Counted from the stretch's first letter, positions 1,569 to 62,934 are shown. The stretch: DNA of 64,000 nt from a virus (IMGVR_UViG_3300043077_000173:32001-96000), one strand, 5' to 3'. Notes: generated by a model from the letters alone, not told the origin. Translations and numbers: made by a program.

Positions 1569-2726
1569 ATGGGAAGCACTAATTTTCATCTTTATCAAAA
1601 ACAAAGAGGTCAAAACTACAACTACATTGATCGTGTATTGAAATCATACATTATGCAAGGTGGTGGTATTTTTTATCTATACCCTATGGTTGCGGTTGTT
1701 GGTTCTGACAATGTTGAACACGCTATTGGTGAAAATGGTTTAGTAGTTTCTGATGCGGTTTTGAATGAAAACCCTAAACGCAAATACTCTAGAGAGGTTT
1801 TTGAATTATGGGGTGTTACACAGATGAAAGCACCATCTTGGCAATACGTTTTAGCTGGCTTGACAGATGCAGATTCTGATGAAAAACAACTTATCCTTCA
1901 CTATAACTCGATGATTGCTCAAATTGGTCGTAAAATCATTGCTGGTGATGTTATTGAAATCACTTGGCTAAGAGATCTTGATGTATTAGGCTCTGATAAA
2001 GCACAAAATAAATTCTATCAGGTAACAACTTCTCAAAGATATGATGAGGCTTGGGATCCTAACTACAAATATCATCTCTGGGAACTCAAAATAAAGCCTC
2101 TGACAGCATCTCCGGAATTTTCCGACTTATATAACACTGGTGAAGAAAACGACTTCTACGAGGATTACGGGTCGGCTAATGGTGGCGGTGGTTTGAGTCA
2201 AGAAAATACCACATCTAGTAATGAATTAGCTATAATGGATTCAATTCTTGATGAGGCGGAAGAGAATGGACCTTCATTCAGATTGCATGATGAACACCAC
2301 GTTTATCTCGATGAAAATGATAAGCTATATGTCGAAAATCTATTTGTCCCACAAGGAACAGATGGTATACCAAATCAGTTGAACTGTACTGATATCGTTT
2401 TCGGTGAAGAATTTCCTGAATCATTTGAAGAAGATGGATATTTCTTACGTACAGACTATAATCCTCCAAGGCTTTATAAACGTTTGGTAAATCGTTGGCA
2501 GTTGGTAGAGTTTGATAATCGTGAAAAATGGACTGGTTGTCCAGCTATTCTTCGTTCTCATATCAATAACGACTCAACATTTATCAATGAATCTGATGAA
2601 ACTGTTAAATCACAGCAAAATATCAAAGATTTAGTAAAAGCAAGAATTAAAAAAGAAAATGGTAAATCAAGAGATTGGAAAAAAATTAGTAAAATTCGCC
2701 CAGATGATGTACCAACAGGTATTTAG
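1569..2726 (+). CDS. Neck / head-closure protein (gp14-like)
   Basis: NENPKRKYS and GRKIIAGDVIEI motifs, YFLRTDYNPPRLY; TAAATA at 1536-1541 and AAGGA RBS. Confidence 0.6.
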   Translation: MGSTNFHLYQKQRGQNYNYIDRVLKSYIMQGGGIFYLYPMVAVVGSDNVEHAIGENGLVVSDAVLNENPKRKYSREVFELWGVTQMKAPSWQYVLAGLTDADSDEKQLILHYNSMIAQIGRKIIAGDVIEITWLRDLDVLGSDKAQNKFYQVTTSQRYDEAWDPNYKYHLWELKIKPLTASPEFSDLYNTGEENDFYEDYGSANGGGGLSQENTTSSNELAIMDSILDEAEENGPSFRLHDEHHVYLDENDKLYVENLFVPQGTDGIPNQLNCTDIVFGEEFPESFEEDGYFLRTDYNPPRLYKRLVNRWQLVEFDNREKWTGCPAILRSHINNDSTFINESDETVKSQQNIKDLVKARIKKENGKSRDWKKISKIRPDDVPTGI

Positions 2727-3109
2727 ATCTTTTGATTTTTCTCTTTATATTCAATAGATTGAGTATAATGTTCAACACCATACTTTTTCTTCATGGTTTT
2801 TCTGGTTTTTTCTTTAACATCCTCTAATTGAAAAGGATTATCAACACCTTTTGTCTTGTTCAAGGTTTTCTTTTGGTTTTCATAAACCATTTTTCGGTCT
2901 TTTTTAATACCATATTCGGCTAAAACGTCTTGTAACATCCGTTTATTGTAGTTCAAATAGGCAGACAATTCATTAATAGACATATTCTGATCAATATAAA
3001 GCTCTATCAAATCCTCTTTATAAGGCTTTTCTCTAGATCTTGTTGAACCGTTTGTAATATATCCTAAAGGTTGTTTAGTATAATCTCTTATCATTTGTTC
3101 CACACCCAT
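2723..3109 (-). CDS. KRDY-family DNA-binding protein lacking the nuclease domain
   Basis: RDYTKQPL...PYKEDLIELY, HTH-like segment and KYGVEHY repeats; ends before any nuclease motif. Confidence 0.7.
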   Translation of the reverse strand: MGVEQMIRDYTKQPLGYITNGSTRSREKPYKEDLIELYIDQNMSINELSAYLNYNKRMLQDVLAEYGIKKDRKMVYENQKKTLNKTKGVDNPFQLEDVKEKTRKTMKKKYGVEHYTQSIEYKEKNQKI

Positions 3110-4371
3110 ACTTTATTGCCACAATCGTATATCTTGTAATAGCCCAATTTATGCATAATATCGGCTTCTGATTTTCCAGAATAGCCTTCAAGAACAAGCT
3201 TATGTTTCTGACATTTATATCTTGATAAAACCTCATAATGCTTATTCCATACATAGTTTGGCTCACTTATTCTATCGAGTTTAAATCCAAGCATTTCATA
3301 TAAATTCCCTCGTGTATGAGCAAGATTTGAATAGCTTATAATAGACTCTGGCTTGTAAGTCTTTATAAAAGCTTTAAATAATCTACTAGCAGCACCATTT
3401 ACGGTATAACCTGCTTTAGAACAATATCGTGAAAGCTCCCATTGATACTTTTTATTAAACCTTGGCTTACAAAATGTCATCAAAGACACTAATTCATCAT
3501 TATAATAAAGGCCTAATTTAACATTACTCTTATCATTTCCTTGTAAATGATTTAGCTCAAGAAATTCACGTTTTTCTTTATTGTTAACCTCTTTAACTAC
3601 ACATTTTCTAGCACCAATCTTTATCTCATTGATTTTCAATAAATTATTTAACTGGTTAATGATTTTATCTTTTTTGGTAAGCCATTCATATTCAAAGACA
3701 TGATACAAAAATATCCCCTTTTCTTCAGCTTTTAGTGACTTCTGTTGATGATAATTCTCTTTAACCCTATTCTCGTTATGCCAATAATTTCCATTAAATT
3801 CTACGCCAATTTTAAGCTCAGGAATGTATATATCAATCTCTTGATTTTCAAGATATTCTTTAGTATTATTCTCGGTTTTATAGAATTTATTGATATACTC
3901 TCGTAATCGTTTTTCTTCCAACGATCCGCTATGATTCATCAAATTCTTTAAGTGATAATTTACGATATATCTTCTAGCTACAGCATTCGAAATATTAAGA
4001 TATTCAGCCAATTCGGTACCAGACTCGATGTTATTATCTTTAATAAACTGTTCAAGAATCTCTTTATTATCAAGTATTTCAGAAACACCTTCTCCATAAT
4101 GAATTCTCTGAAATGATTTCTCTCCATACTTGTCTTGTAAAGTATTTTGGCGGATCATAGTAACAGATTCTTTACGTTCAAGGTTGTACAAGTCAACATA
4201 CTTCTTTACATATTTTCTTGAAACCCCTAAATATTTTCCAATAGCGTCTAAAGATAAGCATTTAACACAAAAAAGATACTCTAAATCTTCTTTATCAATG
4301 CTCTCATAACACGCTTTACCAAAAATATACTGTAAAGGTTGTTTAGTATAATCTCTCTTTAAGCCTTCCAT
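3091..4371 (-). CDS. KRDY-family Hef-like homing endonuclease (PD-(D/E)xK plus C-terminal GNAT-like domain)
   Basis: EIDIYIPELKIGVEFNGNYWH nuclease motif; C-terminal NHLQG...WELSRYC...LYEMLGF...IYDCGNKVWVW. Confidence 0.75.
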   Translation of the reverse strand: MEGLKRDYTKQPLQYIFGKACYESIDKEDLEYLFCVKCLSLDAIGKYLGVSRKYVKKYVDLYNLERKESVTMIRQNTLQDKYGEKSFQRIHYGEGVSEILDNKEILEQFIKDNNIESGTELAEYLNISNAVARRYIVNYHLKNLMNHSGSLEEKRLREYINKFYKTENNTKEYLENQEIDIYIPELKIGVEFNGNYWHNENRVKENYHQQKSLKAEEKGIFLYHVFEYEWLTKKDKIINQLNNLLKINEIKIGARKCVVKEVNNKEKREFLELNHLQGNDKSNVKLGLYYNDELVSLMTFCKPRFNKKYQWELSRYCSKAGYTVNGAASRLFKAFIKTYKPESIISYSNLAHTRGNLYEMLGFKLDRISEPNYVWNKHYEVLSRYKCQKHKLVLEGYSGKSEADIMHKLGYYKIYDCGNKVWVWNK

Positions 4372-5789
4372 ACCCAAATCTTTCTACCACAGTTATATAT
4401 CTTATAATAGCCTTCTTTAATCATTTTGTCAACATCTTCGTCATCAGATCTTTTAACAACCATTCCGCTTTTAAACCATATATAATCAGGTTCTTCTAAA
4501 CCATTTAACTCAAACCCTAATTGAGTATATACTTCATCTTTTTCTTTACCAATACTTGAATAGCTTATAATAGTCTTTGGCTTGTAAGACTCTATAAAAG
4601 CTTTAAAAAGTATTTCTCCGGAAGATAGATTATAGCCATCTTTTACCCAATATTCCGCTAATTCATATTCATAAACAGCTGACTTACAAAATTTCATAAA
4701 TGCTGTCAGTTCATCATTTTTATAAGCATTTACAACTACATCGTTTCCATCAAATACTTTAACCGTCAAATCATTTTCATCTATCGTTTCCTCATCGATT
4801 TTCAATAAATGATTTAACTCATGAAGTATTTTTAAACGATTTGTGTTCCATTCATACTCAAATATGTGATAAATGAATATACCCTTTTCTTCTGCAAGCA
4901 AAGATTTTTCTTGATGATAATTTTTAGGTTTAGCATATTCATTATGATAGAAATTACCATTAAATTCTACACCTATTTTAAGTTCTGGTATATAAATGTC
5001 AATTTCTCTTGATTTTAAATATTTGCGAGTATTATTTTCAGTTTCATAATATTGGTTTATATAATCTCTTATACATTTTTCTGGTATTGATTTAGAATAA
5101 TCAAATAGATAATACCAATTATTTTTATTAATGATAAGCCACATTGTTCGATAGCGTATATTCAATTTTGTTGATAAATCTTTGATATTCAATACTTTAT
5201 TATCAATTATGTATTGTAAAAGTTTATCTTCATGCTCTAATAAATCCCTCTGTTCTTCAGAGTAATCCTTACACATATAAATCTTTGACCCATATCTTTT
5301 TAAGCATGTATCTTGATTTTTTTTGGTATTATTGTAGTTCTCATTTCCATACTTTTTAAACTTTGTGTTCTTAACTTTTTCTAAAAAATCAGTCGTCTGA
5401 GAATAATATTCCGTACCATATTTCTCCCTTAAAGTGTTCTTTGATTTTTCTTTTACACCTTCTCGTTGAAAAACATTAGTAATACCTTCATTTTTCAATA
5501 AGTTCTTTTTAAGATTTTCTTTAATCTTTTTCGTATCTTTTCTAATACCAAGTTTTTTAAATGCTTTCATTAACCCAGACTCACTTCTGTCAAATACGAT
5601 ACTTGCATCTTCTCTAAGCATATTAAGCTCTATATACAAATATTGTACATCCTCTTTATACGGAAGTTCTTTTCGTATACCACCATGATCGTTTCGTGGG
5701 ATTATTTTTAATGGGTTTATAGCATAGTTTCTTTTTAATCTTGATGTATCAACTCCATATTCATCAAATATTTCTTGTATGGTTTTCAT
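4359..5789 (-). CDS. KRDY-family Hef-like homing endonuclease
   Basis: KRNY..NPL..PYKED N-terminus, KYG repeats, EIDIYIPELKIGVEFNGNFYH, degenerate C-terminal domain; TAAATA at 5814-5819 and GGAGG RBS. Confidence 0.75.
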   Translation of the reverse strand: MKTIQEIFDEYGVDTSRLKRNYAINPLKIIPRNDHGGIRKELPYKEDVQYLYIELNMLREDASIVFDRSESGLMKAFKKLGIRKDTKKIKENLKKNLLKNEGITNVFQREGVKEKSKNTLREKYGTEYYSQTTDFLEKVKNTKFKKYGNENYNNTKKNQDTCLKRYGSKIYMCKDYSEEQRDLLEHEDKLLQYIIDNKVLNIKDLSTKLNIRYRTMWLIINKNNWYYLFDYSKSIPEKCIRDYINQYYETENNTRKYLKSREIDIYIPELKIGVEFNGNFYHNEYAKPKNYHQEKSLLAEEKGIFIYHIFEYEWNTNRLKILHELNHLLKIDEETIDENDLTVKVFDGNDVVVNAYKNDELTAFMKFCKSAVYEYELAEYWVKDGYNLSSGEILFKAFIESYKPKTIISYSSIGKEKDEVYTQLGFELNGLEEPDYIWFKSGMVVKRSDDEDVDKMIKEGYYKIYNCGRKIWVWKA

Positions 5790-5846: not shown

Positions 5847-5878
5847 AAAAAAAGAGAGTGAATTTCTTCACTCTCTTA
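5847..5878 (-). terminator. Intrinsic terminator after the major capsid gene
   Basis: AAGAGAGTGAA / TTCACTCTCTT stem followed by a U-tract on the minus strand. Confidence 0.8.
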
Positions 5879-5899: not shown

Positions 5900-7087
5900 T
5901 TAGATGAAGCGTAAGTTCTGAACTTTAATGCGAGCCAAATAATCAGCTGCGTTGCCCAAACTGCTAGCTGGGTTTGTTAGAGCTTTGAAGCCATAACGAG
6001 TAACCATACCCATAACATTTTCAAATGTATTAGGATCAATCAATGTACCAGAACACATTACTGGAATGTAAGGACAATAGTAAGCAGGAGCATCAATCTC
6101 GTTGTCACCCTTATAGCCCATTAGAATATCGTCATCAGTAGCATATGTGTTTACATAAACTTTGATAGCACCATTCAAAACACCAAGCTGTTTGTTGTTA
6201 GTTGGAGCTTCAAACTTACCTTCAGTTGTACGAACGAACTGAGAAGCACCAGCAGACTGTAAAACAGAAAGAACAGCGTGGTTTACAACAGCCCAGTTAG
6301 CTGTCGATTTGCGAATCTTACGAGCGATTTCGTTACCGCAACGGTTCATCAATGCAGCTAGAGAAGCATGTTCATCAACGACTGAAACTGCAACACCTGA
6401 TGTCTTGTTCTGATCATAAACAGCCATTGGCATACCAGCAATACTGCGTAATTTAGCAAGAATTTCTTGGTCGATATCAAGAACGATCTGCTGAGCTAAT
6501 GATGTAGAAAGTTCCTGTTCGATGTTTGCACCATACTGTGATTCAGCGTCCTGCATAGCTTCAAGTGTGAAGCGAGCTTTCAAACGACGTGTACCAGCTT
6601 TAACATCTTCTTTAATGAATTCAACGGAAATATCGTTACCGCCTGTACCTTCAAGAACAGCTGTATCAGCAGCACCTGGATTTTCCATATCTTCGTTACC
6701 TGAATACCAAGCACCAACCAAGAATGGGGACATAGCTTCCTGACCAGCAATGATACCTTTACCATTTACTGGAGAAGTTGTAGCATAACGAATACGCATT
6801 GTTGTGATTAGGCCAGCAGGACCTGTTAGAGGCTGAACACCAACTAATTCGTGAGCCATAACAGTTGGCATAACACGTTTAATTAAAGGCATCATAACCT
6901 TGTTGATAAGAGCAACGTTAGCAGCAACAGTTGAGCCACCAGTAGCATGCTCTTTTAAGAGTTCACGACGTGTATTTTCTAATACAGTCTCTGTAATTGC
7001 ACGGCGAGAAGCAGATTTGATGTCGGCACAAAGACCAGACTTCATTTTGTTCCAAGCAACGGCATTTTCTAATATAATATTAGCCAT
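5900..7087 (-). CDS. Major capsid protein (T4 gp23-like)
   Basis: VGVQPLTGPAGLI, TRRLKARFTLEAMQD, YCPYIP, GMVTRYG signatures. Confidence 0.95.
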   Translation of the reverse strand: MANIILENAVAWNKMKSGLCADIKSASRRAITETVLENTRRELLKEHATGGSTVAANVALINKVMMPLIKRVMPTVMAHELVGVQPLTGPAGLITTMRIRYATTSPVNGKGIIAGQEAMSPFLVGAWYSGNEDMENPGAADTAVLEGTGGNDISVEFIKEDVKAGTRRLKARFTLEAMQDAESQYGANIEQELSTSLAQQIVLDIDQEILAKLRSIAGMPMAVYDQNKTSGVAVSVVDEHASLAALMNRCGNEIARKIRKSTANWAVVNHAVLSVLQSAGASQFVRTTEGKFEAPTNNKQLGVLNGAIKVYVNTYATDDDILMGYKGDNEIDAPAYYCPYIPVMCSGTLIDPNTFENVMGMVTRYGFKALTNPASSLGNAADYLARIKVQNLRFI

Positions 7088-42379: not shown

Positions 42380-42383
42380 TGCT

Positions 42384-43041: not shown

Positions 43042-43078
43042 TATACAAAAAAAGAGTGGTTTTTATTATTGTTTCACA

Positions 43079-43139
43079 TATAAATATTTCTAATACAACA
43101 AATGGGACAAGAATTACGACTTCTCACCCCATTTTAAAC
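43079..43139 (+). promoter_or_regulatory. Late promoter TATAAATA plus leader hairpin of the nuclease gene
   Basis: TATAAATA at 43079-43086; AAATGGG..AGAA..TTCT..CCCATTT followed by TAAAC. Confidence 0.6.
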
Positions 43140-43164
43140 AACTTAAACTAATTAGGAGTTCAAG

Positions 43165-44172
43165 ATGTCTAGTAATATTTATGCCACCTATAATATAGAT
43201 AAGTCAAGATTAAAGCGTGATTATGTAAGTAATCCATTAAAAGCTGGAGAACGTCCATATAAAGAAGATTTAGAATATCTCTATCTCGAACTGAATATTA
43301 GGGACAAAGATTTACAAATTATCTTTAATACTTCTTATTCATCAGTACGCAGGTATTTACAAAAGTATTCTCTTAAAAAGCCTAAAGAACTGATACAACA
43401 AAACAAATGTGCTACGAATATCGCAAAATATGGAGTACCATATATTTCTCAAAACAAAGAAATACGTGAAAAAATTGCTTTAACAAATATAGCTAAATAT
43501 GGTTCAAAATGCTCTGTAAATATAGAAAAATCTGAGCAAACAAAACTTCTCCGGTATGGTAATACAAGATACACAAACCGACAAAAAGCTAAAGCTACTA
43601 ACAAGAGAATTCATGGCGATGAAAACTATAATAACAGGAATAAAGCATATGAAACTTGTTTAGAACGTTACGGCACAATATTTTATACGCAAACAAACGA
43701 ATATAAAGAATTATATTCAAACTCTAATTTTGTTAAACAAAAACAAGAAAAAGAACACATAACCAAAAAGAAAAATGGTACTGAAGGAGTATCTATAAAA
43801 GAAGATAAATTATTTAATATTTTATTAACCAAATTCCCCGATGTCAAAAGGCAATACAGAACTGATGTATATCCTTACCCCTGTGATTTTTACATACCAT
43901 CGTTGGATTTATATATTGAATATCAAGGTGAACCAGGACATGGAACGGAACCATATATTGGAACTCCAGAGCAAGTTAAACTTGCTAATACATGGATGCA
44001 AAAATCAACCGAGATTAACTGGAAAGGACAAAAGAAAACACGCTATTTAACAATGTATAAACGTTGGACAATTACCGACCCTAAAAAACGAAAAATTGTT
44101 AAAGATAATCATCTAAAATGGATTGAATTTTTCAATGAAAAAGAATTTATGGACTGGTTTAACAAACAATAA
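43165..44172 (+). CDS. KRDY-family PD-(D/E)xK homing endonuclease
   Basis: KRDYVSNPL..PYKEDL, KYG repeats, YPYPCDFYIPSLDLYIEYQG..GHG, TDPKKR. Confidence 0.75.
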   Translation: MSSNIYATYNIDKSRLKRDYVSNPLKAGERPYKEDLEYLYLELNIRDKDLQIIFNTSYSSVRRYLQKYSLKKPKELIQQNKCATNIAKYGVPYISQNKEIREKIALTNIAKYGSKCSVNIEKSEQTKLLRYGNTRYTNRQKAKATNKRIHGDENYNNRNKAYETCLERYGTIFYTQTNEYKELYSNSNFVKQKQEKEHITKKKNGTEGVSIKEDKLFNILLTKFPDVKRQYRTDVYPYPCDFYIPSLDLYIEYQGEPGHGTEPYIGTPEQVKLANTWMQKSTEINWKGQKKTRYLTMYKRWTITDPKKRKIVKDNHLKWIEFFNEKEFMDWFNKQ

Positions 44173-44210
44173 AAAAAGCATCCCCTGAATAAGAGGATGC
44201 TTTAATTTTT
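44171..44210. terminator. Bidirectional terminator between the nuclease and sheath genes
   Basis: AAAAAAAGCATCC / GGATGCTTT stem. Confidence 0.8.
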
Positions 44211-44222: not shown

Positions 44223-47200
44223 TTAGTTAGAACTTGATAAGGATCCAGTTTTAACAATGCGAATGGGCAGATAAATTTGTTCTATGGATTTTGTAGGTTC
44301 CAAAGCTATTTCTGCCCATAACTCTTTTCGCTCAATTCTCTCCGATGTATTAACCGTAGTATCGGTTACAAGAGTAAAGTCATAAATTTCTTCTCTTGAC
44401 ATATAATCGTTAAGAATAGAGCGTAAAGAAGCGTCAAAATCATTTCTTACAGATTGTGTATTCAACTGGAAGAAGAATGGTTGGCAAGCAGCTTCTAATT
44501 CACGTTTTAATCTTAATAGCATGATAATTGTATGCTCGTCTGATAACGCTGAAGTATATGAATTTTCAGTAGCTTCACCCCAAATTAATAGACCAGCGTT
44601 TCTTCTAGGCATAATTGGGTTAATACTATTCGAAACTAATACTTCACCAAGGCTATCTTTTACTGAAACAGCAGTATATTCGTTTTCATCGTTAATATAA
44701 CCAACAGAAGAAGCATTAGATACTTGACCATATTGTGTACCAGCAGCTATACGACCTCTTGGTAATGTTAGGAGGTTATACATTTTAACAACAGATGAAG
44801 GAACAGCAATTTCAGAACCATCTACGTTAGTTGTTAATGCCATAGATGGGTATTGACGTGTTTGGTAAGCACTGTAAATAATACGACCATCTTCACCATG
44901 TGAGTTAGCATTGTTCTTGTTTGTTGCCCAAGCTGTAACTTCTGATGCTTTAGGAGCCAATCTAGCTGGAGTATCTGAAACATTGTAGAACATCTCTTTC
45001 TTATCAACGTTGAGTTCTTTAATCTCATCATCTAGTTCAGGATAGCCTGCACAGTTAATGAAATAGAAATCATAATCATCTGAACGAATATCTTCATTGC
45101 TATTAATTGCTTCAGCTAATGCTTTAACAACCATTTTACGCTGAGCTTTACGACCAAATAATCCAGAACCATCTAAATCATTTCCAGAAGCAGTTGACCA
45201 ACGGGTTGTCTTAACATTCTTCGTAGAACCTGGGGTAGCAAATTCACTTGATTTACCAACTGTAAAGGTTTCACCATATGTTTTAACACCGTCTACATAC
45301 TTGTCGTTATATGATTTAATGTTGTTTGTTGAATACATTGTGTTAAACAATAGAATACCACCTGGATAAGATAATGGGTTTACACAATCTGGATCAACAT
45401 AATTTGAAATCATCAAATCATCAGATTCTTCTGAGAATGCAACGTGTTTAGAACCTGTGTAAGCTGGACCTGCATTTTCACGAGCATCAGCATATACAAC
45501 ACCTAAACCAGTTGATTGATCTGTGTTATCAACAACTTCCCACTCACCATCAAAGTAACGATAGATTGTTGGATATTCTGTATCATTAGTATCAATCCAT
45601 AAATCATATTCCTGTAGATCAGAACCTTCTTCTTTTGTTTCTGGTTCTTCTGTATTGACAATAATATCAGCACAAGGATACATATTCTTATAACCTAACC
45701 ACTGTTGACCATCGTTAACCATGATATCAAACTTGTAGTCATCATTGAACCACAATGTGCCAATTTCAGGCTCTGTAGTTGGCTCTAGGTTAGAAGATTC
45801 ATAAGAAACTTCAATCCAGTTACCGTTTGTATATTCGCCTTCAGCTAGACCACATTTTTCAAGAATATTACCTTTAACGTTTGCTAATTCAATGGTGTTA
45901 CCACTTGAGGAAACGATTCGTAATGCTTTATTGTAAACATCTGCAGAAACGTTTTCAATCTTAGCTTTGTTAATGTATGTTACCAAATCTTCTACTGTCT
46001 TTCCATAAACGGTAATTAGATATGTTTGAATTGCACCATCTACAATCGTTTTAATAGAAATTACATCACCATTTGTTAATTCTTCAGCAGCCGTTGCTTC
46101 AATAGCATTTACTCCACCAACGAATTTCATAATTTTTTCAGAAACAGTGTTTTCGTCATATTTAACGATCATAGCTGAACCCTTTTCTTCAGCTTCAAGA
46201 TATGTACCATACATTGGTAATACTGATGAAGTCCAAGATTTAGAAGTCTTGCTATATTTCTTCATTACATATGAAGCACCATAGTTTGGCTCGGTTGTTT
46301 TAACCCAGATTGATCCAGCATTCTCTCCGGAAGGAATCTTTGTATGGGAACCGAATACAACGGAAACATTATCTCCAACAACAACCTGTTTAACATCATT
46401 TAGTTCAAAGCCTAAATCTTCTAAAGCTGTACCAGATTTTTCAATCATTAGAATAGCTTCGGCAGTGTTAGCAACGGATAAAACACCATCTTCATATGTA
46501 GCTAGAACATTAACAATACCGGCTTCGTTAATAAGTTCTTTAACAGCATTAGCATTTGAACCAGCTGGAACTGTCAATTCTTTACCCATAACACTGATAA
46601 CCGATTCAGTCTTAACTGTTACACCAGATGCAACAGTCGCTTTAACGGTTGCAGGAAACTGATCTTTCCAACCACGTGAACCAATCTCATACCAAGCTTG
46701 AGCAATATTCTCATAAAACTTGATTTCGTTATTTAAACAAACTACACAAACATCACCGTTTGAACCATATGTCATAGCTGGTTTACCTGTTTCGTCAATG
46801 TAGTCATCAGATGGAGTTAAAACACCATCGATTCTATCCCATGCAATAGCTGGACGTCTATTACCATTTGCTCTGAATAAGCCAAATGATGTCGAGGCTT
46901 TATCAAGCCATAACGTGTTGGCTTTTGGCTCGCTTGTTGGTTCTTCTTTTGTAGCAACTAGCTGACCTAAGTCAATGTCTGCACGTAAACCATAAGCCAA
47001 GGCTGAGGCACCAAGACCACTATACAAAGCATACAAGCCAACTTCGTTTAGCTCATCACCCTGTTGAACCGTTCCGTCAATAGTTGTAAATTGTGGAACA
47101 CCATATGTTTCAACAACATCAGACTGTGATGTCAAAAGCATAACTTCATTAGCTGTACTTTTTGTTGTACCTGGAGCAATTTCCCCTGTGTCTTCGTCAA

Positions 47201-47312
47201 TTACCTTGTTTTCAGCAGTTGCGAACACATATAAAGGTATAACTGTAGAAGTGCCAGAACCATATGTAGATTCGTCAATAATCTCAATATGGGTTTTTGC
47301 TAATTCTGCCAT
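44223..47312 (-). CDS. Tail sheath protein (gp18-like) with large insertions
   Basis: IIDES.Y, YGVP.F..GDELNEVGL, C-terminal INPI...WG...IALEPTKSIEQIYLPIRI. Confidence 0.9.
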   Translation of the reverse strand: MAELAKTHIEIIDESTYGSGTSTVIPLYVFATAENKVIDEDTGEIAPGTTKSTANEVMLLTSQSDVVETYGVPQFTTIDGTVQQGDELNEVGLYALYSGLGASALAYGLRADIDLGQLVATKEEPTSEPKANTLWLDKASTSFGLFRANGNRRPAIAWDRIDGVLTPSDDYIDETGKPAMTYGSNGDVCVVCLNNEIKFYENIAQAWYEIGSRGWKDQFPATVKATVASGVTVKTESVISVMGKELTVPAGSNANAVKELINEAGIVNVLATYEDGVLSVANTAEAILMIEKSGTALEDLGFELNDVKQVVVGDNVSVVFGSHTKIPSGENAGSIWVKTTEPNYGASYVMKKYSKTSKSWTSSVLPMYGTYLEAEEKGSAMIVKYDENTVSEKIMKFVGGVNAIEATAAEELTNGDVISIKTIVDGAIQTYLITVYGKTVEDLVTYINKAKIENVSADVYNKALRIVSSSGNTIELANVKGNILEKCGLAEGEYTNGNWIEVSYESSNLEPTTEPEIGTLWFNDDYKFDIMVNDGQQWLGYKNMYPCADIIVNTEEPETKEEGSDLQEYDLWIDTNDTEYPTIYRYFDGEWEVVDNTDQSTGLGVVYADARENAGPAYTGSKHVAFSEESDDLMISNYVDPDCVNPLSYPGGILLFNTMYSTNNIKSYNDKYVDGVKTYGETFTVGKSSEFATPGSTKNVKTTRWSTASGNDLDGSGLFGRKAQRKMVVKALAEAINSNEDIRSDDYDFYFINCAGYPELDDEIKELNVDKKEMFYNVSDTPARLAPKASEVTAWATNKNNANSHGEDGRIIYSAYQTRQYPSMALTTNVDGSEIAVPSSVVKMYNLLTLPRGRIAAGTQYGQVSNASSVGYINDENEYTAVSVKDSLGEVLVSNSINPIMPRRNAGLLIWGEATENSYTSALSDEHTIIMLLRLKRELEAACQPFFFQLNTQSVRNDFDASLRSILNDYMSREEIYDFTLVTDTTVNTSERIERKELWAEIALEPTKSIEQIYLPIRIVKTGSLSSSN

Positions 47313-47416: not shown

Positions 47417-49453
47417 TTACAGTTCGTTTTCAACGATAATTATCTCATTATCTAATGGTTTTTCGTTCAAAATGATATGTGTTTTATCCTCTGAAATTGT
47501 ATAATCTTTCACGGATAATTTTTCTGGAGAAGCCGAATAAATGTACGAACTGTTTGCTGAATAATCTTTATCGGCAACATAGTTTGAAATAGTGTATGTA
47601 TAAACACCTTTCTTACGATTTGTTGTAATAGTTTCAAACAATACTTTATCACCATTTACATAAAGTATTCCTTTACGGTTTTTGGAAGAATTTGGTAAAA
47701 TGATGTTATTAGAGTCTATGGTAAACGATTCACCATCTTTCTGAATATCTGTTAATAATGATATATGAGATTTTTTCCAAACCGTTAACTTGCTTTCACT
47801 CTTATAACCATTTGGTATCTCATATTCTTGATTACCGTTTAAACATACTGCTGAAATGCTTGGCAAAGTATAGTCATAAACTTTTTTAGTTTGTTCGTTA
47901 TAGGTATATACGGTTGATCCTTTTAAATGTTTTTCGGTAATATATGATCCACCACTACCTCTCCTTATAGATTTTAAAAGATTCTCAGAGGCATCATAAT
48001 CATAAAACTCAATGATTTCAGAGCCTATCAAAATCTTTCCTGGAATCTTTACGTCAGAATCATCTACATATGGTAATTTAAGCTTTTTAATATTCTTTAC
48101 TCTAATGGTTTTATCACCAATGTTTAATTCTCTAGCTAATTCGGTAATCATTGATTTTGAAATAACAATATCACTATTTTCACCTTTATGATCTACGTTA
48201 AATAATGATGATATCGTTCCGTTAGACTCTGTACAAATCTTTAAATCTTCGTTAGGATATACCGCAATAAGTTCAGATGGTCTATTCTGTTCATAAAATG
48301 GTCTTAAAAACTCGTTTCCATCAAGAGTTATGAGGTTATTACTTTGTCCGTAACAATCTTCATAAGTATAGATCTTGTCATATAGTTGTCCATAGTCTAT
48401 AACCGTTATGATAACATGATAACCTTCTTTTAGTTCATCCTTTAATAATAATCCTTCAGAAGTCCTTTCGTAGTTGTATGTCGGTATTCTTGTACCATTT
48501 GGATACTCAATATGAACAATAGTTTTTCGAGTACCATATTTGCTATCCGGAATCGTAAAGACTGTGTTATTAACATCTACAAATTGTCTGATATCGCTTT
48601 CATCAGTCGATTCTTTAAATGATGTAACCGCATAAACAAGACCACTCCGAACACCATCATATTCGTTAATGATGTAGATCTTATCATCTTTTTTAACCTT
48701 TGTAAATACTGATAAAATTTTTGTGTTATCATTATACGAAAATTCTTCTTCTACACCGTTTCTGTAAACCGTTAAATTACCAATTTTATCAAATTTCTTT
48801 AATGAAAATGTTGATACACCAGCAATTATGTAACTCTTTTCATAAGGGAATGTTAATAAAGATGATTTTTCCGTAGAATCTGTTATGTAGTAATCAGCCG
48901 AAACTGTTGGAGCATCATATAGTTGGTTATCATATAAAAATGTATCATACCCAAAATTGTCTATATCAAATTCTCCACCTTCAACGGTAATCCCTTTAAA
49001 ATGACAGTTTAAAACGTCTTCAAGGTATGCTTTCATTTCATCATCTGTCAAAACGTTATGCTTTATGTACCACAAACGATTTGCTGCAGTTGTATCCATA
49101 TATTCAATGTCCGACATCGAACCTTGCTCATCAACCTCTTTACAAACGGAGTCAAATCGCATACCAACTTCAATATTGCATTCATCTTGTGCTTCAATGT
49201 TACAAACATCTGTTTTATTGGAGTATTTTTCAATAAACTGTTCAAATTGTACATGATATGGCTTAACACTATTAATGTAATCAATAATGTCATCTGATAA
49301 AGACTCTTTTTCATACTTTTGATCCGTTACAGTCGAGTTAATACCTGTAAAGTTTACAAGACTTGTTTTTAAAGCCCAATCTACATTCTTTTGCTCAGAA
49401 AATATGTAATGTAAAAGACCAAAAAATATTTTATTTCTATCAAGTGCGGACAT
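47417..49453 (-). CDS. Baseplate / structural protein; probable C-terminal partner of the 2212-aa protein
   Basis: FF...YIFSEQ..VDWALKTS...YINSVKPYH; later RPSEL and IRRG motifs. Confidence 0.6.
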   Translation of the reverse strand: MSALDRNKIFFGLLHYIFSEQKNVDWALKTSLVNFTGINSTVTDQKYEKESLSDDIIDYINSVKPYHVQFEQFIEKYSNKTDVCNIEAQDECNIEVGMRFDSVCKEVDEQGSMSDIEYMDTTAANRLWYIKHNVLTDDEMKAYLEDVLNCHFKGITVEGGEFDIDNFGYDTFLYDNQLYDAPTVSADYYITDSTEKSSLLTFPYEKSYIIAGVSTFSLKKFDKIGNLTVYRNGVEEEFSYNDNTKILSVFTKVKKDDKIYIINEYDGVRSGLVYAVTSFKESTDESDIRQFVDVNNTVFTIPDSKYGTRKTIVHIEYPNGTRIPTYNYERTSEGLLLKDELKEGYHVIITVIDYGQLYDKIYTYEDCYGQSNNLITLDGNEFLRPFYEQNRPSELIAVYPNEDLKICTESNGTISSLFNVDHKGENSDIVISKSMITELARELNIGDKTIRVKNIKKLKLPYVDDSDVKIPGKILIGSEIIEFYDYDASENLLKSIRRGSGGSYITEKHLKGSTVYTYNEQTKKVYDYTLPSISAVCLNGNQEYEIPNGYKSESKLTVWKKSHISLLTDIQKDGESFTIDSNNIILPNSSKNRKGILYVNGDKVLFETITTNRKKGVYTYTISNYVADKDYSANSSYIYSASPEKLSVKDYTISEDKTHIILNEKPLDNEIIIVENEL

Positions 49454-50178: not shown

Positions 50179-50994
50179 ATGCGTCAATTAACTATTTTTC
50201 CAAGCTTATACTGTCCCTTTAATTGTGCTTATTGCATCTTTAAAGATAAACTCTATAGTAAAGAATTACTTTCTTTAGATTCTTTGAAAGAGTTCCTTGT
50301 AAAAGATCATGAAAAATTTGACAAATTTGTTATTGATGGTGGTGATCCATTATCATTGAATGAATCGTATTTCAAATCTTTAGTAAGTATCTTGAAAGAG
50401 TTTAATAAAACGATTACTCTTAGATCGTATCCATATACTCTATTAAATACTCAAGAAGATATCCATTACGATTTCTCATATGATTTTCTCGCAAAAGCTA
50501 TGCCAAATGATGCTTGGGGAAACCTTTACAGCTTCAAGAAACCATTTGACCTTACAATCACTTTATCACCAGCTTTATTCTCATATCATCCAAACGGAAT
50601 TTTAAGAAAATTATCTATGTTGGAAAACCTTAAAAGAGTAGAGTTTGTCCCATACTTTAAAAACAAAAATTCTCAATACGATATCAATAGAAACGATTCA
50701 CTTAAAGAATTTTCAAAACTTTTATTAGGCTCTCAATTAAACGTTCCATTCACAATCGTTAACAAAGAAATTATGAACAAAAAGATTTTAAAATCCTTTG
50801 CAGATCCTATCGATATATGCTTATTTCCAGATGGAAAGCTTTACAAAAAGGATTTTGTAGAGGATTTTCTAACTTTTAAAATGATTGATAACATAGACGA
50901 TGTACAGCCAAACGTTTTACCTGAATCATGTGATATGTATGATAGAAACATTCAGGTATGGTATAGCCAAAACATTTTAACTAAAGATTTTTAG
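50179..50994 (+). CDS. Radical SAM superfamily protein
   Basis: CPFNCAYC (CxxxCxxC) and GGDP. Confidence 0.75.
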   Translation: MRQLTIFPSLYCPFNCAYCIFKDKLYSKELLSLDSLKEFLVKDHEKFDKFVIDGGDPLSLNESYFKSLVSILKEFNKTITLRSYPYTLLNTQEDIHYDFSYDFLAKAMPNDAWGNLYSFKKPFDLTITLSPALFSYHPNGILRKLSMLENLKRVEFVPYFKNKNSQYDINRNDSLKEFSKLLLGSQLNVPFTIVNKEIMNKKILKSFADPIDICLFPDGKLYKKDFVEDFLTFKMIDNIDDVQPNVLPESCDMYDRNIQVWYSQNILTKDF

Positions 50995-52377
50995 TAAACC
51001 AGAAGCACTGGACGTACTCCCACCAGTGGTTATCTGACCAACAATTGATGAAGGATCATCCGTCAGCTTTAACAAATATTGCCCTTTATTATCTGATTTC
51101 TTATAGTTTGAAACAGCAGATGTAGCAGACTGAACCAATGAAATCTCTTGTGAAAACCCTAACTTTCTCAATGTATCCAATGACTGTGATTTTAATACGC
51201 TCCACCTTTCATTTGAAGGAGCATCTAGAATACCTTTGATAAATGATACCGCCGTATCAATCCCCATCGCTGCACCAGATTTATACCGAACGTTTAAGAA
51301 ATTAGCCATTTCTTCTGTAATATTAGCATTTATCATTGACTTGAGATATGCTTTATCGCCAGTCCACGTAACATTGTATGGATTAACGTCTAATAAATCA
51401 TTTGTTATACCTTCGTATTGAAAGGTTACCATTATTTCATTCGGGTTAAATGATCCAACTCTGTTTGTTCCAAATTTTATATCCTGAATTACTGGATTTT
51501 CAATGGTATAAACCATCATTTTATCCATATAGTATTCACAAATCGATATCTTATCAATCATTCTGAAGTTTGAATCAGTATCAAAACCCCAATCACTCTT
51601 ATCATAATCAAAATCATCCGTAACTATTTGTTTACGATAGTTTCGATAATCTTTGCATAAAAAGTTGTTACTAATAAGCTTCAAATATGTGAAAAAGAAT
51701 TGCTCTACAGGGTTGTCTTTAACATCATAAAACGTTACGGTTATAGGATTATATGTTATTTTATCATATACCAAACGTTTTCTATTGTATTCATTATATT
51801 CACTAATTTTAAACGAAACACCTGGCTTATCAATCGATTTAACAAACTTTGATAACTCGAACGATAACTGGTTTAGCAAATACTTTTCTGGCAAATAATC
51901 ACCATACGATTTACTATCCTCCGTCGTTTTTATGCCAGAACTTGAACTACTAGAAGATGATGATGAGGAAAACAAATCTGACACACTCGATAGTCCAACA
52001 CTACTTATTAATGATTTAGCCGCTGATTTAATAGAGCTACTAAGTGTTGATAAAATGTTGTTCGTTGATGTTTCTGATGAACTAGAACTCTCGCTCGATG
52101 TACCATTTACCAAATATTGTACTAATGCTTTCTTTTTTGCAAGCATATTATGCGTTCCGGGATTTAACGAAAAGTAAACAAAGAACATTGTCTCTGTTTT
52201 TGGTAAATTCATTATGGTAGATTGTGTCTGAAAACGCTTTTGACCAGTTGTTGTTATATACTCTGGAATAAAATCAGTACCATAAGTTGTTGCAGCATAA
52301 TTTGAGCCTTCCCCACTTAACAATTTACCAAGAGAAGAATTTTGTAATGATGATGTAAAAGAACTAAATATGCTCAT
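50977..52377 (-). CDS. Tail tube-like / baseplate-tube junction protein (gp48/gp54-like)
   Basis: VKSIDKP...NEYNRKR...KITYNPITVTFYD...VTFQYE; Ser-rich inserts. Confidence 0.6.
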   Translation of the reverse strand: MSIFSSFTSSLQNSSLGKLLSGEGSNYAATTYGTDFIPEYITTTGQKRFQTQSTIMNLPKTETMFFVYFSLNPGTHNMLAKKKALVQYLVNGTSSESSSSSETSTNNILSTLSSSIKSAAKSLISSVGLSSVSDLFSSSSSSSSSSSGIKTTEDSKSYGDYLPEKYLLNQLSFELSKFVKSIDKPGVSFKISEYNEYNRKRLVYDKITYNPITVTFYDVKDNPVEQFFFTYLKLISNNFLCKDYRNYRKQIVTDDFDYDKSDWGFDTDSNFRMIDKISICEYYMDKMMVYTIENPVIQDIKFGTNRVGSFNPNEIMVTFQYEGITNDLLDVNPYNVTWTGDKAYLKSMINANITEEMANFLNVRYKSGAAMGIDTAVSFIKGILDAPSNERWSVLKSQSLDTLRKLGFSQEISLVQSATSAVSNYKKSDNKGQYLLKLTDDPSSIVGQITTGGSTSSASGLLKIFS

Positions 52378-58634: not shown

Positions 58635-61613
58635 ATGGCAAAAAACACTACTCAAATTAGTTTGATCAAACATCGTAGAGGGAAATTATCTGAATTACCA
58701 ACACAATTAAATGAAGGTGAATTTGGTCTAGCTCTAGATACCAACCAATTGTTTATCGGTAACCCTGAAAATGATGAACTCTCACAAAGAATTGAGGAAA
58801 ATATCTTCCCTTATGGTAACATAGAGGTTTTAACAGAGTTCACAGACAACCTCAACAAAATCAAATACACATACAAGTCAAACACAGATGTTACCGCCAG
58901 ACTACCTATTGTTATATATGGTAGTAATGCTAACCCAATTTTGCCAGCAAACAGTTCAATCATCTTAAACTCCGATGAAATTTATTTTAAGAACAACTCT
59001 AGCTTACAAACTATTGTTGAAACAATTAATGAAGAATCTACCGAAGTTAAAGCGTTTATTTATGACAATGCTTTTGTAGGCTTGATCTCAAATAGTACCG
59101 AAATTTTTATTGAAGATGGTACAGTTGGTACTACAAGTAACGTTTCATTATTAGGCTTTGGGGAAGATAGCTTTTATTCTCAAACTTCCGAAACATTACC
59201 TCAAAGAACTTTACAATCAACCTTAGATGATTATTGTTCAATCAAATCATTCGGCGTAAAAGGTAATGGAACTACAGATGATTCCGAAGCAATCTTTAAT
59301 GCAATCATTTCTATAAACAAAGCTGGAGAAGAACCACAATTTTATAGAACCATTTACATTCCAGCTGGTATATATAATATTTCTACAAAGCCCGTCCCAT
59401 TACCAACCGGTACACATTTAAAAGGTGATGGTATAGGAAGAACCGTTATTAAAAACAAAGATTTATCCGAATGTTTAGTAATGGTTATGGATGATAATTA
59501 CAACGTTGCTAATGCTACATCCTTTGGAAAAGATTCTAAAATCATTTCTAATATAATCGTTGAAGATCTAACGTTTGACGGCTCGGAAAATGATTCACAA
59601 ATCTTGTCATTAGGATCTGTTGAAAACGTTTTATTCAAAAATGTCGAGTTCATAGGTACTGATTTAACAACCCTTATCAATATTTCAAATAGCACATATA
59701 ACAACAGTTCTCTACATATCGTTTTTGAAAACTGTGTATTCGATAACTGCTATCACGCTTTAACATCATCAACAAACGTTGAACACCTTGTTATTTCACA
59801 CTGTTTATTCAAAGATTGTAACCACGAAGCTATCATTTTCAACAAATCAACAAATAAAATCATCAATTCAATCATTGACGGAAACGATTTTGTAAATTGT
59901 GGTACAGGAAGCTATTTAATCATATCATTGTCTGAAAACTGTGAATATGTATCTGTTATCAATAACAAATTTGAAGATAATGTCGCTAATAAAATATCTC
60001 CGATAGAAGCTTATTCATCAACATCTGACAAAACATTTACTGACATTCTTGATGCCACAACAGATACCAAAAAGCTTTTACAGTTCAAGTTTACCCAACC
60101 CGTTTGGGAATATATTGACTATTTAATGAATCCAAATGGTCAGTATATATTAAAATCAGAATATGGTACAACCATTATAAATGGTGAAGAAAAAGCATCA
60201 GATTTAACAAACGGTTTAATCCTAACACAAGGTGATGCAACAAATGGAAATACCGTTTCTCTAAAATCTTCTTTAGATTATGGTGATATATCAATTAGTG
60301 GTAATGCATATGGATCTGTTCATTTAGGATCGGCCAATGAAACATCTCTTGAAGAATATAACGAATATTATAACTATCACGAAGATGATATCATTATTTC
60401 ATATGATTCTGTAAATCCTGGTATATATCGTTGTATCAGTCCTTGTACTGGTATTGGTATCACAAATGAGGACTATTGGGAATATGTAGGTTCATTTGAT
60501 CCTTCCATAATTCTTCATCATCAATTAGATGTCAATGAAAACGTTATCACAAACACAGGTACTTCCGGAGATATTGAATTTAAGATCGATGGTTCTGGTA
60601 TTATGAAGGTTACAACCGAGTCTGATGGTGATACAGATGGAGCAACAGTTTATGCAAATAATATCGCTTCAACAACAAATGCTATTGCAACGGTAGCATA
60701 TGTTAATAAAGCAGCTTCATCGACAATTATAAATGAGTTCAATTACAACACTTTGATTGCAGATCCAGTCAACAAGTTCGATCTAATCACTTTTGACCCA
60801 AATATCTATGGAGATGTCGTTAATATTGATAAAATCTCTATCAATGTTCGTGTTCCTTTCTATCCTATTCAAGATCGTATTGCAGATGCTCAAACTTGGC
60901 AGCCATACAGCAAATACTATAAAGGCGATATCGTTTACTCTGCTGATGAAGGCATTTATATGATATGCTTAGACGATCATATTTCTGGGGAAACAACTGA
61001 TAATGGCGATAATGCTGACAACTATTGGGACGAGGTTAAAGTATCAGGTACTTGTTTAGATGGTTCTACAACCAATTTCAACGATGTCAAATACATCTCA
61101 ATCATTGCCACAAATGATACAGAAAACCCTGCTCGTCTATTGTTTAATAAAAACGAAATTGATATTACAAAGCGTGATATTCACTCAACTTATTATCCAG
61201 ATTGGACTGCTAATAAAGCTTACAAAGTTGACGATAAAGTATCTTATCAAAATCGTTATTGGAAATGCTTGAAAGCTCATACATCATCTGAAGCTACTGA
61301 TTTGCATGATTCCAGCTTATGGACAATCATTTCAGAAGAAGGTTTTAACTACATCTATGATTTTGATAGAGAAATTACACCAATTGATTTCAAAACAGAA
61401 GTTGAACTTGACGGAGAATCTTTAGAAACAACAAAGGTTTATAACTACTCTGGGTATAGACTTTATATGGAAATGTTTGATGAAAACATGAATCTAGTTC
61501 CTATAGCTAAACACGTCGAAGGTCAAGAAGATGATGACATTAGCTATTTTATGCAACTTTGCCCGACAGGTTATATGACAATTAGCATTCACTATATACG
61601 AGGTGAAAAATAA
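58635..61613 (+). CDS. Tail spike / fiber with beta-helix and CBM5/12-like repeats
   Basis: IKHRRG..LP.QL.EGEFG N-terminus; FGVKGNGTTDDSEAI...YIPAGIY pectate-lyase-like start; WTANKAYKVDDKVSY..RYWKCLKAHTS. Confidence 0.75.
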   Translation: MAKNTTQISLIKHRRGKLSELPTQLNEGEFGLALDTNQLFIGNPENDELSQRIEENIFPYGNIEVLTEFTDNLNKIKYTYKSNTDVTARLPIVIYGSNANPILPANSSIILNSDEIYFKNNSSLQTIVETINEESTEVKAFIYDNAFVGLISNSTEIFIEDGTVGTTSNVSLLGFGEDSFYSQTSETLPQRTLQSTLDDYCSIKSFGVKGNGTTDDSEAIFNAIISINKAGEEPQFYRTIYIPAGIYNISTKPVPLPTGTHLKGDGIGRTVIKNKDLSECLVMVMDDNYNVANATSFGKDSKIISNIIVEDLTFDGSENDSQILSLGSVENVLFKNVEFIGTDLTTLINISNSTYNNSSLHIVFENCVFDNCYHALTSSTNVEHLVISHCLFKDCNHEAIIFNKSTNKIINSIIDGNDFVNCGTGSYLIISLSENCEYVSVINNKFEDNVANKISPIEAYSSTSDKTFTDILDATTDTKKLLQFKFTQPVWEYIDYLMNPNGQYILKSEYGTTIINGEEKASDLTNGLILTQGDATNGNTVSLKSSLDYGDISISGNAYGSVHLGSANETSLEEYNEYYNYHEDDIIISYDSVNPGIYRCISPCTGIGITNEDYWEYVGSFDPSIILHHQLDVNENVITNTGTSGDIEFKIDGSGIMKVTTESDGDTDGATVYANNIASTTNAIATVAYVNKAASSTIINEFNYNTLIADPVNKFDLITFDPNIYGDVVNIDKISINVRVPFYPIQDRIADAQTWQPYSKYYKGDIVYSADEGIYMICLDDHISGETTDNGDNADNYWDEVKVSGTCLDGSTTNFNDVKYISIIATNDTENPARLLFNKNEIDITKRDIHSTYYPDWTANKAYKVDDKVSYQNRYWKCLKAHTSSEATDLHDSSLWTIISEEGFNYIYDFDREITPIDFKTEVELDGESLETTKVYNYSGYRLYMEMFDENMNLVPIAKHVEGQEDDDISYFMQLCPTGYMTISIHYIRGEK

Positions 61614-61614
61614 T

Positions 61615-61635
61615 AAAAGGGCTTTAAGCCCTTTT
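61615..61635. terminator. Bidirectional terminator overlapping the nuclease stop codon
   Basis: AAAAGGGCTT-T-AAGCCCTTTT. Confidence 0.7.
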
Positions 61636-62934
61636 ATTTAACCATTCATTAAATTCATCAAGAGAAAAGAATTCCACCCATATATATTGTGGATGTTCTT
61701 TAGCCCATTTTCGTTTATTAGGATCTTTTATAGTCCACGACATAATAGCTCTCTCGAAATATCCACTATTTTTATTCTTCATAATTTCAACTATTTTTCT
61801 ATGTGTTTCATTTAAATCATCATATGGACAATGTGCTGAATAAACTATCCCATTTTCAGTAATGTATGTTGGACCATGTACCCACGAGCCTTGATATTCA
61901 ATAATCGTATTAGTCTCTGGTATATAAATATCAGCAATTCCCGGATAACTATCTTCTCTCCACTGGCTAATAGCTGACGGATAAATTATCTTCACTTTTT
62001 CCAATAATTCATTTTCTTCTACCGATAGATGGTTTTCACGGTTCTTGATTTTATTGGATAGCGTTTTTACAGCTTTTTCTTGATATTCTTCACGATGCTC
62101 GTCAAACTGTTGACTAGATACAAACCACTCACTTCCGTATTTCTCTAAATTTGTTTGTTTTGTTTTTTGCTTATATTCATCTGTCATTGGAAAATATTCA
62201 GCACCATATTTTTCAATCATCGTTTTCTTTGATTGCTCTCTAAAATCATCTTTATTAAATATACAAGCTACACCATATCTTTCTTGATTAGTTGTTTCTA
62301 TCTTCTCTCTAATCTCTTTCGCTGTAGCAAAATGATTTACACCGTATATTTTTTGGCTTGTTTCTTTAATTTGCTCTTTGTATTTGTCGCATTTTGAATA
62401 ATGATCTACGCCATATCTATCTTCCAGTGTTTTCTTGGATTTTTCTTTAATCATTTCATTTTGAAATACGTTATCAACACCATATTTCTCTCTTACAGTC
62501 TTTCTTTGTTTTTCTTGAACTTCTTTATTTTGAAAGGATGACTTGTAACCATATCGCTTTATATTTGTTTCAGAAACTTTCTTTTTTACTTCTTCTAAAG
62601 AAGATGTATAAGGTACACCATATAGCTTAATATTTGTTTTTTGAGTATTTAATAAAGCTAACTTTTTATCTTTTTTAATGTTATATTTTTCTAAACAGTG
62701 AACAATAACGGCATCACTAACCTTAAATAACTTACATAATTCAGCCCTTCTAAGATTTATTTCAAGGTATAAATGCCTAAAATCTTCTTCATAAGGTAAT
62801 TCAAATTTCAATTGATTACGAATCGGTTCACGAATACATTTTTGTAAAGGATCTATAATATAATCACGTTTATATTTAAAATCATCAGTAATACCAAATT
62901 TATCACGCAAATATGTATAAATATTGTCAGACAT
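61624..62934 (-). CDS. KRDY-family PD-(D/E)xK homing endonuclease
   Basis: KRDYIIDPL..PYEEDF, about 8 YG(V) repeats, ADIYIPETNTIIEYQGSWVHG, KDPNKR. Confidence 0.75.
   Translation of the reverse strand: MSDNIYTYLRDKFGITDDFKYKRDYIIDPLQKCIREPIRNQLKFELPYEEDFRHLYLEINLRRAELCKLFKVSDAVIVHCLEKYNIKKDKKLALLNTQKTNIKLYGVPYTSSLEEVKKKVSETNIKRYGYKSSFQNKEVQEKQRKTVREKYGVDNVFQNEMIKEKSKKTLEDRYGVDHYSKCDKYKEQIKETSQKIYGVNHFATAKEIREKIETTNQERYGVACIFNKDDFREQSKKTMIEKYGAEYFPMTDEYKQKTKQTNLEKYGSEWFVSSQQFDEHREEYQEKAVKTLSNKIKNRENHLSVEENELLEKVKIIYPSAISQWREDSYPGIADIYIPETNTIIEYQGSWVHGPTYITENGIVYSAHCPYDDLNETHRKIVEIMKNKNSGYFERAIMSWTIKDPNKRKWAKEHPQYIWVEFFSLDEFNEWLNKRA

Follow-up and report, generated by a model that had tools for sequence, protein, structure and literature searches.

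Six related genes lie in the 64,000-nucleotide stretch of DNA analysed here (the window), which comprises bases 32001-96000 of the 110,258-bp uncultured virus record IMGVR_UViG_3300043077_000173, and we consider it highly probable (roughly 0.85) that they belong, as free-standing homing endonuclease genes, to the Vsr-like (EDxHD) nuclease superfamily. An earlier note on this DNA had proposed that they encode homing endonucleases, a proposal now supported by the labels of matching PHROGs families, by Hef-like homologues in 414 phage records and by filled, empty and probable scar alleles in relatives. The proteins are called P0001 (open reading frame (ORF) 2723), P0002 (3091), P0003 (4359), P0004 (24804), P0005 (43165) and P0006 (61624); coordinates marked 'genome' count along the 110,258-bp record, and designations of the form L0xx and G00x refer to the related loci and records with which it was compared. 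Type 1 denotes the copies whose nuclease is not followed by a GNAT domain (24804, 43165 and 61624) and type 2 the Hef-type copies which also carry a GNAT domain (3091 and 4359).

The proteins would be built from exchangeable parts, namely an extended helix-turn-helix (HTH) domain marked by the motif KRDY..PL, an arm of the DUF7487 family with zero to eight KYG repeats, and a C-terminal nuclease. The nuclease is predicted to come as one of two heads, either the Hef type with a Mom-like GNAT domain behind it (3091 and 4359) or a GNAT-less form whose Vsr core carries an insert (24804, 43165 and 61624). We envisage that the HTH domain and repeat arm anchor the protein to a long site within or next to the conserved neighbour gene of an insert-free co-infecting relative, that the nuclease may then cut that site, and that recombinational repair from the carrier genome could copy the gene and its flanking DNA into the break. 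By occupying gaps between terminator and promoter, the genes would leave the late operons undisturbed. Copies would also decay, ORF 2723 having apparently lost its nuclease and the copy at genome 103049 three putative active-site residues.

The family members and their DNA-binding regions

All six ORFs claimed in the earlier note are open, and the N-terminal module that it described is shared by all of them. When the six are aligned, R, Y, P, L, E, E, D and L are invariant (R.Y...PL ... E....ED...L), with the continuation P(Y/F)xED...LY in five and the variant DKEDLEYLF in 3091. The pattern [KR]?R[DN]Y...PL occurs in seven of the 216 ORFs of at least 60 amino acids (aa) in the whole record, always within the first 22 residues, and P0004 used as a query retrieves the other copies at E 9e-60 to 2e-9, so the resemblance is not a matter of chance. 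The module had been described as constant, which is true of its conserved scaffold residues but not of the third, recognition-type helix, which differs between copies.

Three of the genes stand in tandem on the minus strand. P0003 (4359..5789, 476 aa) is an intact Hef-like homing endonuclease gene, first after the capsid-gene terminator, and combines the KRDY module and HTH with three to four KYG repeats, a second HTH, a Vsr-like nuclease and a Mom-like GNAT domain. P0002 (3091..4377, 428 aa) likewise has an intact Hef-like architecture, in which KRDY and HTH, one KYG repeat and an HTH_11 domain precede the Vsr-like nuclease (residues 150-250) and the GNAT/Mom-like domain (257-428). P0001 (2723..3109, 128 aa) is a nuclease-less remnant with KRDY, HTH and one to two KYG repeats. 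P0002 overlaps P0003 by 19 nucleotides (nt), as P0001 does P0002; these junctions (3091-3109 and 4359-4377) are of the same form, and a 24-nt stretch coding RDYTKQPL is identical in ORFs 3091 and 2723, a sign that copies may have recombined or undergone gene conversion. The type-1 genes are dispersed: P0004 (24804..25814, minus strand, 336 aa) has KRDY, HTH, four KYG repeats and a nuclease at about residues 203-336 and is convergent with the tail tube gene; P0005 (43165..44172, plus strand, 335 aa) has five KYG repeats and is convergent with the sheath gene; and P0006 (61624..62934, minus strand, 436 aa) has eight and is convergent with a spike-like gene.

Three further members lie in the record outside the window, bringing the total to nine copies in 110 kb. 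All are on the plus strand: genome 29686-30717 has the full type-1 architecture (KRDY, repeats and type-1 nuclease), genome 101932-103092 has an array of HTH units instead of KRDY before its type-1 nuclease, and genome 103049-103915 consists of the type-2 nuclease and GNAT alone. The last two form a pair (L002:5932-7915, or genome 101932-103915) in which the repeated-HTH type-1 gene overlaps the 288-aa Hef-type ORF by 44 nt, the latter being without a DNA-binding arm and without three active-site residues; one endonuclease gene may have been inserted into another here.

The KYG repeats correspond to the Pfam family DUF7487 (PF24308), with a repeat length of about 23-24 residues and, counted by eye, 0 to 8 repeats per protein; in the predicted model each repeat would be one helix and a loop. 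Against a gathering cut-off of 27 bits, the DUF7487 scores were 27.2 for P0001, 41.1 for P0003, 56.4 for P0004, 33.4 for P0005 and 119.8 for P0006, and Pfam gave no DUF7487 match in P0002. Our full-text literature search found no mention of DUF7487. It is plausible that such repeat arrays retarget the nuclease, as has been proposed for the repeated DNA-binding modules of other phage homing endonucleases (Barth 2023, PMC10448857).

A survey with the N-module profile, as the earlier note had advised, returned 2301 cluster representatives with E <= 1e-3, of which 494 reached E <= 1e-10. The full KRDY module sits one to three times at the N-termini of DUF7487 proteins, and the HTH half by itself forms arrays of up to 12, some of which end in HNH or DUF559/MTES_1575 nucleases; the Pfam scan of these matches took in 85 of the 150 listed, up to about the 76th protein, and is used qualitatively only. 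NCBIfam held no family for the seven proteins searched.

Two heads of one nuclease superfamily

The earlier note's division of the C-terminal regions into two types is borne out, and these are two heads of a single nuclease superfamily. On the strength of predicted models and profile comparisons, both are Vsr-like (EDxHD) nucleases which share the fold of the homing endonuclease I-Bth0305I. The structure prediction that had been recommended gave a Vsr-like nuclease fold in both heads, with a predicted local distance difference test (pLDDT) score of 90.2 and 91.9 for the models; the Hef-type domain of P0002 entered the structure comparison as residues 152-250. The Hef-like (type-2) profile matches PDB 3R3P (E 0.0068), and in this alignment the E, D, N, H and acidic columns correspond. 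Of 35 aligned sequences, 34 retain the type-2 active-site columns D182, N195, H200 and E229/E231, and 30 retain E155. In the genome 103049 copy three active-site residues are lost, R, S and K standing in place of the E, N and H seen in 34 of 35 relatives.

Type-1 and type-2 profiles align with one another at E 1.9e-36 (hhalign), from the N-module through D.YIP..IE(Y/F)(Q/N)G...H, and this alignment places type-1 E208, D237, (Q250) and H255 on the type-2 active site. Invariant in 42 type-1 sequences are E208, D237, E248, H255, D306 and K309, a list to which Q250 does not belong; D306 is the putative final active-site Asp of type 1. Pfam covers no nuclease half of the type-1 proteins (24804, 43165 and 61624), and its weak MTES_1575 matches in P0002 and P0003 fall below the gathering score. 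Searches of PDB sequences with the single proteins P0002 and P0006 gave nothing relevant, and the type-1 profile A3 found in PDB sequences just a 34-residue match to 3k93 (E 0.37).

PHROGs already label families of these genes as homing endonucleases. P0002 and P0003 match phrog_3339 (E 9e-98 and 1.5e-42, respectively), and the type-1 matches are confined to the arm and the nuclease's first half. The label of phrog_559, HNH endonuclease, was considered and rejected, given that the fold is Vsr-like instead and that Pfam gave none of the six proteins an HNH family at E <= 0.1.

Behind the nuclease, a Mom-like GNAT domain is present in P0002, as judged by fold, and in P0003, by alignment to P0002. 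The likeness to Mom is one of predicted fold only, and profile A4 did not reach Mom by sequence at E <= 1. In P0004, P0005 and P0006 the chain ends with the nuclease, and for want of the GNAT domain these copies are not filed as Hef-like. A related locus (L019:5029-5955) encodes a 308-aa protein with KRDY, repeat and Hef-type nuclease that also ends after the nuclease, so the Mom-like domain is dispensable in at least some Hef-type genes.

Filled, empty and scar sites

If these genes are mobile, relatives should differ in carrying them at the same place, and empty sites, which the earlier note had said should be looked for, were found at both the capsid 3' site and the sheath site. The major capsid/head protein gene (5900..7087, minus strand, from PHROGs) has an insertion hot spot as its 3' flank. 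A capsid relative was present at 35 loci (7 viral and 28 metagenomic), seven of which were too short downstream, leaving 28 readable. A KRDY-family endonuclease gene is the first after the capsid terminator at six of them (L010, L015, L019, L020, L024 and L043, where L010 and L024 are the same contig), with three family members in L019 and two in L020. At a further nine (L021, L022, L026, L036, L037, L041, L044, L045 and L047) a conserved 510-610-aa gene, whose L010 homologue has a weak amidoligase match, comes directly after the capsid gene. The others have a 372-401-aa ORF followed by a 190-aa ORF (eight loci), unmatched short ORFs (three) or other genes (two). The two-ORF arrangement, seen at L011:8289-10056, L013:8300-10049 and similar loci, is a cassette of an AAA ATPase (about 400 aa) and a 190-aa HNH protein; Pfam identified the ATPase in L011 and L013 and the HNH in L011 alone, the remaining loci being assigned from ORF sizes. 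The capsid 3' site appears always to carry some nuclease or variable cassette.

The clearest pair is formed by L022 (empty) and L010 (filled), whose capsid genes and terminators agree at 92.7% of positions across 1251 bp and which differ by a 1531-bp insert in L010 that holds a 496-aa endonuclease gene. Between L022:3723-7600 and L010:7001-12400 identity falls from 92.7% to 69% (in the next gene) exactly at the insertion point, which suggests a recombination boundary. At L026:3745-3986 a 243-nt spacer after the capsid gene resembles, by eye, the last codons of Hef-type genes (..NCGNKV..), and is probably the deletion scar of a lost endonuclease gene.

At the sheath site, the string of homologues of the sheath, 42384 and 41324 genes is found with no endonuclease gene in L018, G001 and G005, while in the window P0005 sits between sheath and 42384, a place taken by a 143-aa ORF in G005. 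The DNA of L018 is too diverged from the window for the insertion to be placed at base level. Having found this string intact, we rejected the idea that 24804-44172 arrived as one insert flanked by the inverted genes P0004 and P0005, at least as a single event.

The genes are separate ORFs in intergenic gaps and do not lie within an intron or intein; Rfam gave no family at gathering score in the window, and group I intron models had no match. Neither the P0002 nor the P0006 query matched any of four related 203-287-kb records, where the same searches of the 110-kb record itself gave four and 13 places, respectively. The N-module profile A2 also had no match in five records (those four and G002), in a search that included no positive control.

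Placement beside virion genes

The earlier note had described the family as parked at virion genes, which is true of the window copies but not of the three members outside, which adjoin a methyltransferase-like gene and a radical-SAM pair. From PHROGs matches, the neighbours in the window are a virion structural protein (1569-2726), the capsid gene, the tail tube (24141-24755), the tail sheath (44223-47312) and a 992-aa spike-like protein (58635-61613) with a weak tail-spike match (E 1.5e-4).

Three copies had been said to end in W(F/L)xK at the neighbour's terminator, and indeed they end WFDKQ, WFNKQ and WLNKRA, each convergent with a virion gene. A bidirectional terminator hairpin serves the tube gene and P0004 (24777..24802, -16.9 kcal/mol, z -5.6, scored on both strands) and a further terminator hairpin lies between the stop codons of P0005 and sheath (44175..44203, -14.3 kcal/mol), both of them immediately 3' of the endonuclease stop codons. 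At the end of P0006 (61612..61638, -14.3 kcal/mol) the stop codon forms the loop and the last three codons (K R A) the 3' arm, the earlier note having already placed the last codons in one arm. P0004 is flanked by two terminator hairpins (25905-25932 and 24777-24802). The capsid-gene terminator (5852..5877, minus strand) is directly upstream of P0003, and the insertion point common to relatives comes just after it. No hairpin was found at 2723, where the stop codons of 2723-3109 and the convergent 1569-2726 overlap, and scans for sigma-70-like promoters around all sites gave counts not above those of shuffles.

Around the tube gene the order of genes differs in relatives. In the relatives compared that have no endonuclease gene (L004, L005, L007 and G001/G005) the tube is followed directly by a homologue of 47417-49453 and the sheath is about 30 kb off. 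In the window a 22.5-kb segment (24804-47312) stands between the tube and 47417-49453, beginning exactly with P0004 and ending with P0005 and sheath; as it starts at P0004, a rearrangement boundary coincides with a nuclease gene.

Weighing the explanations

Several observations weigh against reading these genes as homing endonuclease genes. For every copy, cleavage, the target sites and homing itself are what we infer from the comparisons above. The best filled/empty pair consists of two relatives and not of the window itself; relatives without P0004 at the tube site differ in the downstream gene too, so this is not a clean empty allele; and the search for related loci with the 992-aa spike-like protein found no relatives for the spike site. 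The closest relatives found have tube and capsid proteins only 74-83% identical to those of this phage.

The nine copies in 110 kb, set against none in four large relatives, could instead have arisen in situ, one ancestral gene having been duplicated within the phage and retargeted by changes to its repeat array, and the tandem copies with their identical 19-nt overlaps and common 24-nt stretch fit such a history. The lineage-specific expansion put forward in the earlier note is nevertheless not supported, and we regard it as improbable. The family is very widespread, with 2678 proteins found by the type-1 query and 3808 by the type-2 query; most of them are unnamed, and many come from contigs longer than 100 kb. 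Within the phage collection, type 1 occurs in 15 Prevotella Lak megaphage records only and type 2 (P0002, tblastn) in the 414 records mentioned above, from many hosts and annotated 'Hef-like homing endonuclease'. P0002 is 62-67% identical to foreign copies compared with 42-48% to its neighbour P0003, and P0001 is 63% identical to a 227-aa nuclease-less protein of L019 compared with 30-37% to its window paralogues. In a tree of 52 type-1 proteins, built from their last 150 residues, the window copies are scattered, although 26 of its 49 inner branches are weak and an approximately unbiased (AU) test does not reject a single clade for the five type-1 copies (p 0.46), leaving that point undecided. 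The same modules are, moreover, joined elsewhere to zinc-finger or HTH arrays; in homologues the same nuclease is found with two KRDY modules or a Cys-rich N-terminus, and Atlas has it with DUF723 zinc fingers or alone (as a lead only).

The Mom-like domain raises a different prospect, that of a single chain which cuts and protects, with the GNAT domain acylating adenines in the phage's own DNA and the fused nuclease attacking the unmodified DNA of the host or of a superinfecting phage, as a restriction-like weapon. This has been proposed for the Mom-REase fusions of jumbo phages (Iyer et al. 2021, PMC7824862), but it would fit two of the six window copies, the type-1 copies and the 308-aa Hef-type protein of L019 being without GNAT; filled/empty polymorphism at one intergenic site is the behaviour of a mobile gene, and Hef-family members are reported as homing endonucleases in a review. 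We therefore think it rather improbable here. It is a little less likely still that the proteins are domesticated DNA-binding proteins or nucleases which serve the phage by excluding competitors or satellites or by regulating genes, with forms like ORF 2723 acting as regulators or protectors at their binding sites. ORF 2723 and its 227-aa L019 counterpart do both keep the N-module and repeat frame open, many short N-module-only proteins appeared in the profile search, and homing endonuclease domains have been implicated in conflict between phages and satellites (Barth 2023, PMC10448857); yet the short database proteins may be contig fragments, and truncation is also the expected path of decay of a homing endonuclease gene. 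A related and similarly doubtful idea is that the KRDY-HTH module and DUF7487 repeats form a modular, recombination-shuffled DNA-reading arm common to at least two nuclease heads, whose nuclease-less forms (ORF 2723 and the 227-aa protein) persist as target-site binders that protect or regulate. Free-standing homing endonuclease genes thus remain our preferred explanation for the six.

Wider implications and other features of the record

The Hef-type copies are already known, and the GNAT-less head and the KRDY-HTH module are unannotated, ordinary variants; these two very common phage modules are unnamed in current libraries. What the record adds is a single uncultured jumbo phage that is heavily colonised, with nine such genes in 110 kb where four large relatives have none, and a capsid-gene 3' end that offers a clean natural series of filled, empty and scar sites. 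We would advise that such genes be annotated as Vsr-like (EDxHD) homing endonucleases and not as 'HNH'.

That this is a jumbo phage follows from the CheckV completeness of the 110,258-bp record, 29%. The gene content of the window is that of a myovirus late region, with PHROGs matches to capsid, portal, protease, tube, two sheath-like genes, baseplate wedge, a 2212-aa virion protein, a late sigma factor and a split DNA polymerase. When two window stretches were compared with phage records by megablast, no relative emerged, one stretch giving just a 60-base match to Lak phages, and a related-loci search with a 635-aa protein also found none. The one late region contains two sheath-like genes (27941-29293, 450 aa, and 44223-47312, 1029 aa) and two genes with tube-protein matches (24141-24755 and 50977-52377). 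DNA methyltransferase-like genes are present at 36153-37559 and 39363-40097 in the window and at L001:10719-11543, one of them adjoining an endonuclease gene; their PHROGs matches are phrog_9968 (E 7e-170), phrog_67 and phrog_799. The family-B DNA polymerase is divided between two minus-strand ORFs, 33889-35589 (phrog_262 positions 10-494) and 30750-32582 (positions 497-850), and between them is a 426-aa HNH/homing-endonuclease ORF (32572-33852), which shares 11 nt with the second; group I intron models gave no match.

Comparison with known systems

The EDxHD family was named by Taylor et al. 2011 (PMC3239194), who already included Hef-type phage endonucleases in it and showed that I-Bth0305I cleaves its target. 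That enzyme (PDB 3R3P) is encoded by a group I intron and carries NUMOD motifs, whereas the window genes are free-standing and have the KRDY-HTH module and DUF7487 repeats; type 1 differs from it further by about 45 extra residues, inserted between the His and the last Asp. The Vsr mismatch endonuclease of E. coli (PDB 1CW0/1VSR) and DUF559/MTES_1575 share the fold and active-site layout of the window nucleases, but Vsr, a nickase of DNA repair that has a zinc site, lacks the DNA-binding arm of the window genes.

The Hef-type copies are to be compared with Hef of phage U5 and with the Hef-like free-standing endonucleases of Campylobacter phage NCTC12673 (Hef59), CP30A and LIMEstone1 (F-LimIII and F-LimVIII); P0002 has 39-46% identity to annotated Hef-like proteins over 63-80% of its length (39.6% over 79% for NCTC12673 Hef59). 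The matches to the Campylobacter proteins exclude its N-terminal KRDY-HTH/DUF7487 arm, and the type-1 copies, having no GNAT domain, are not Hef-like in the strict sense. In LIMEstone1 the Hef-like genes likewise lie beside baseplate-wedge and tail-tube genes (PMC3296691). The Mom-REase fusions of jumbo phages (Iyer et al. 2021, PMC7824862) similarly place a nuclease before a Mom-family GNAT domain, in several copies per genome; that paper reads them as restriction-modification-like, whereas the presence/absence data here fit mobile homing genes. No paper joining Mom, Hef and 'homing endonuclease' was found in our full-text literature search.

Barth et al. 2023 (PMC10448857) describe nuclease genes that adjoin essential genes and lie at boundaries of exchange, and their T5orf172 homing endonucleases resemble the present family in their repeated and shuffled DNA-binding modules, essential-gene neighbours and sharp changes of identity. 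The parts themselves differ, a GIY-YIG-like nuclease with Zn-finger repeats in T5orf172 compared with a predicted Vsr-like nuclease with helical KYG repeats here.

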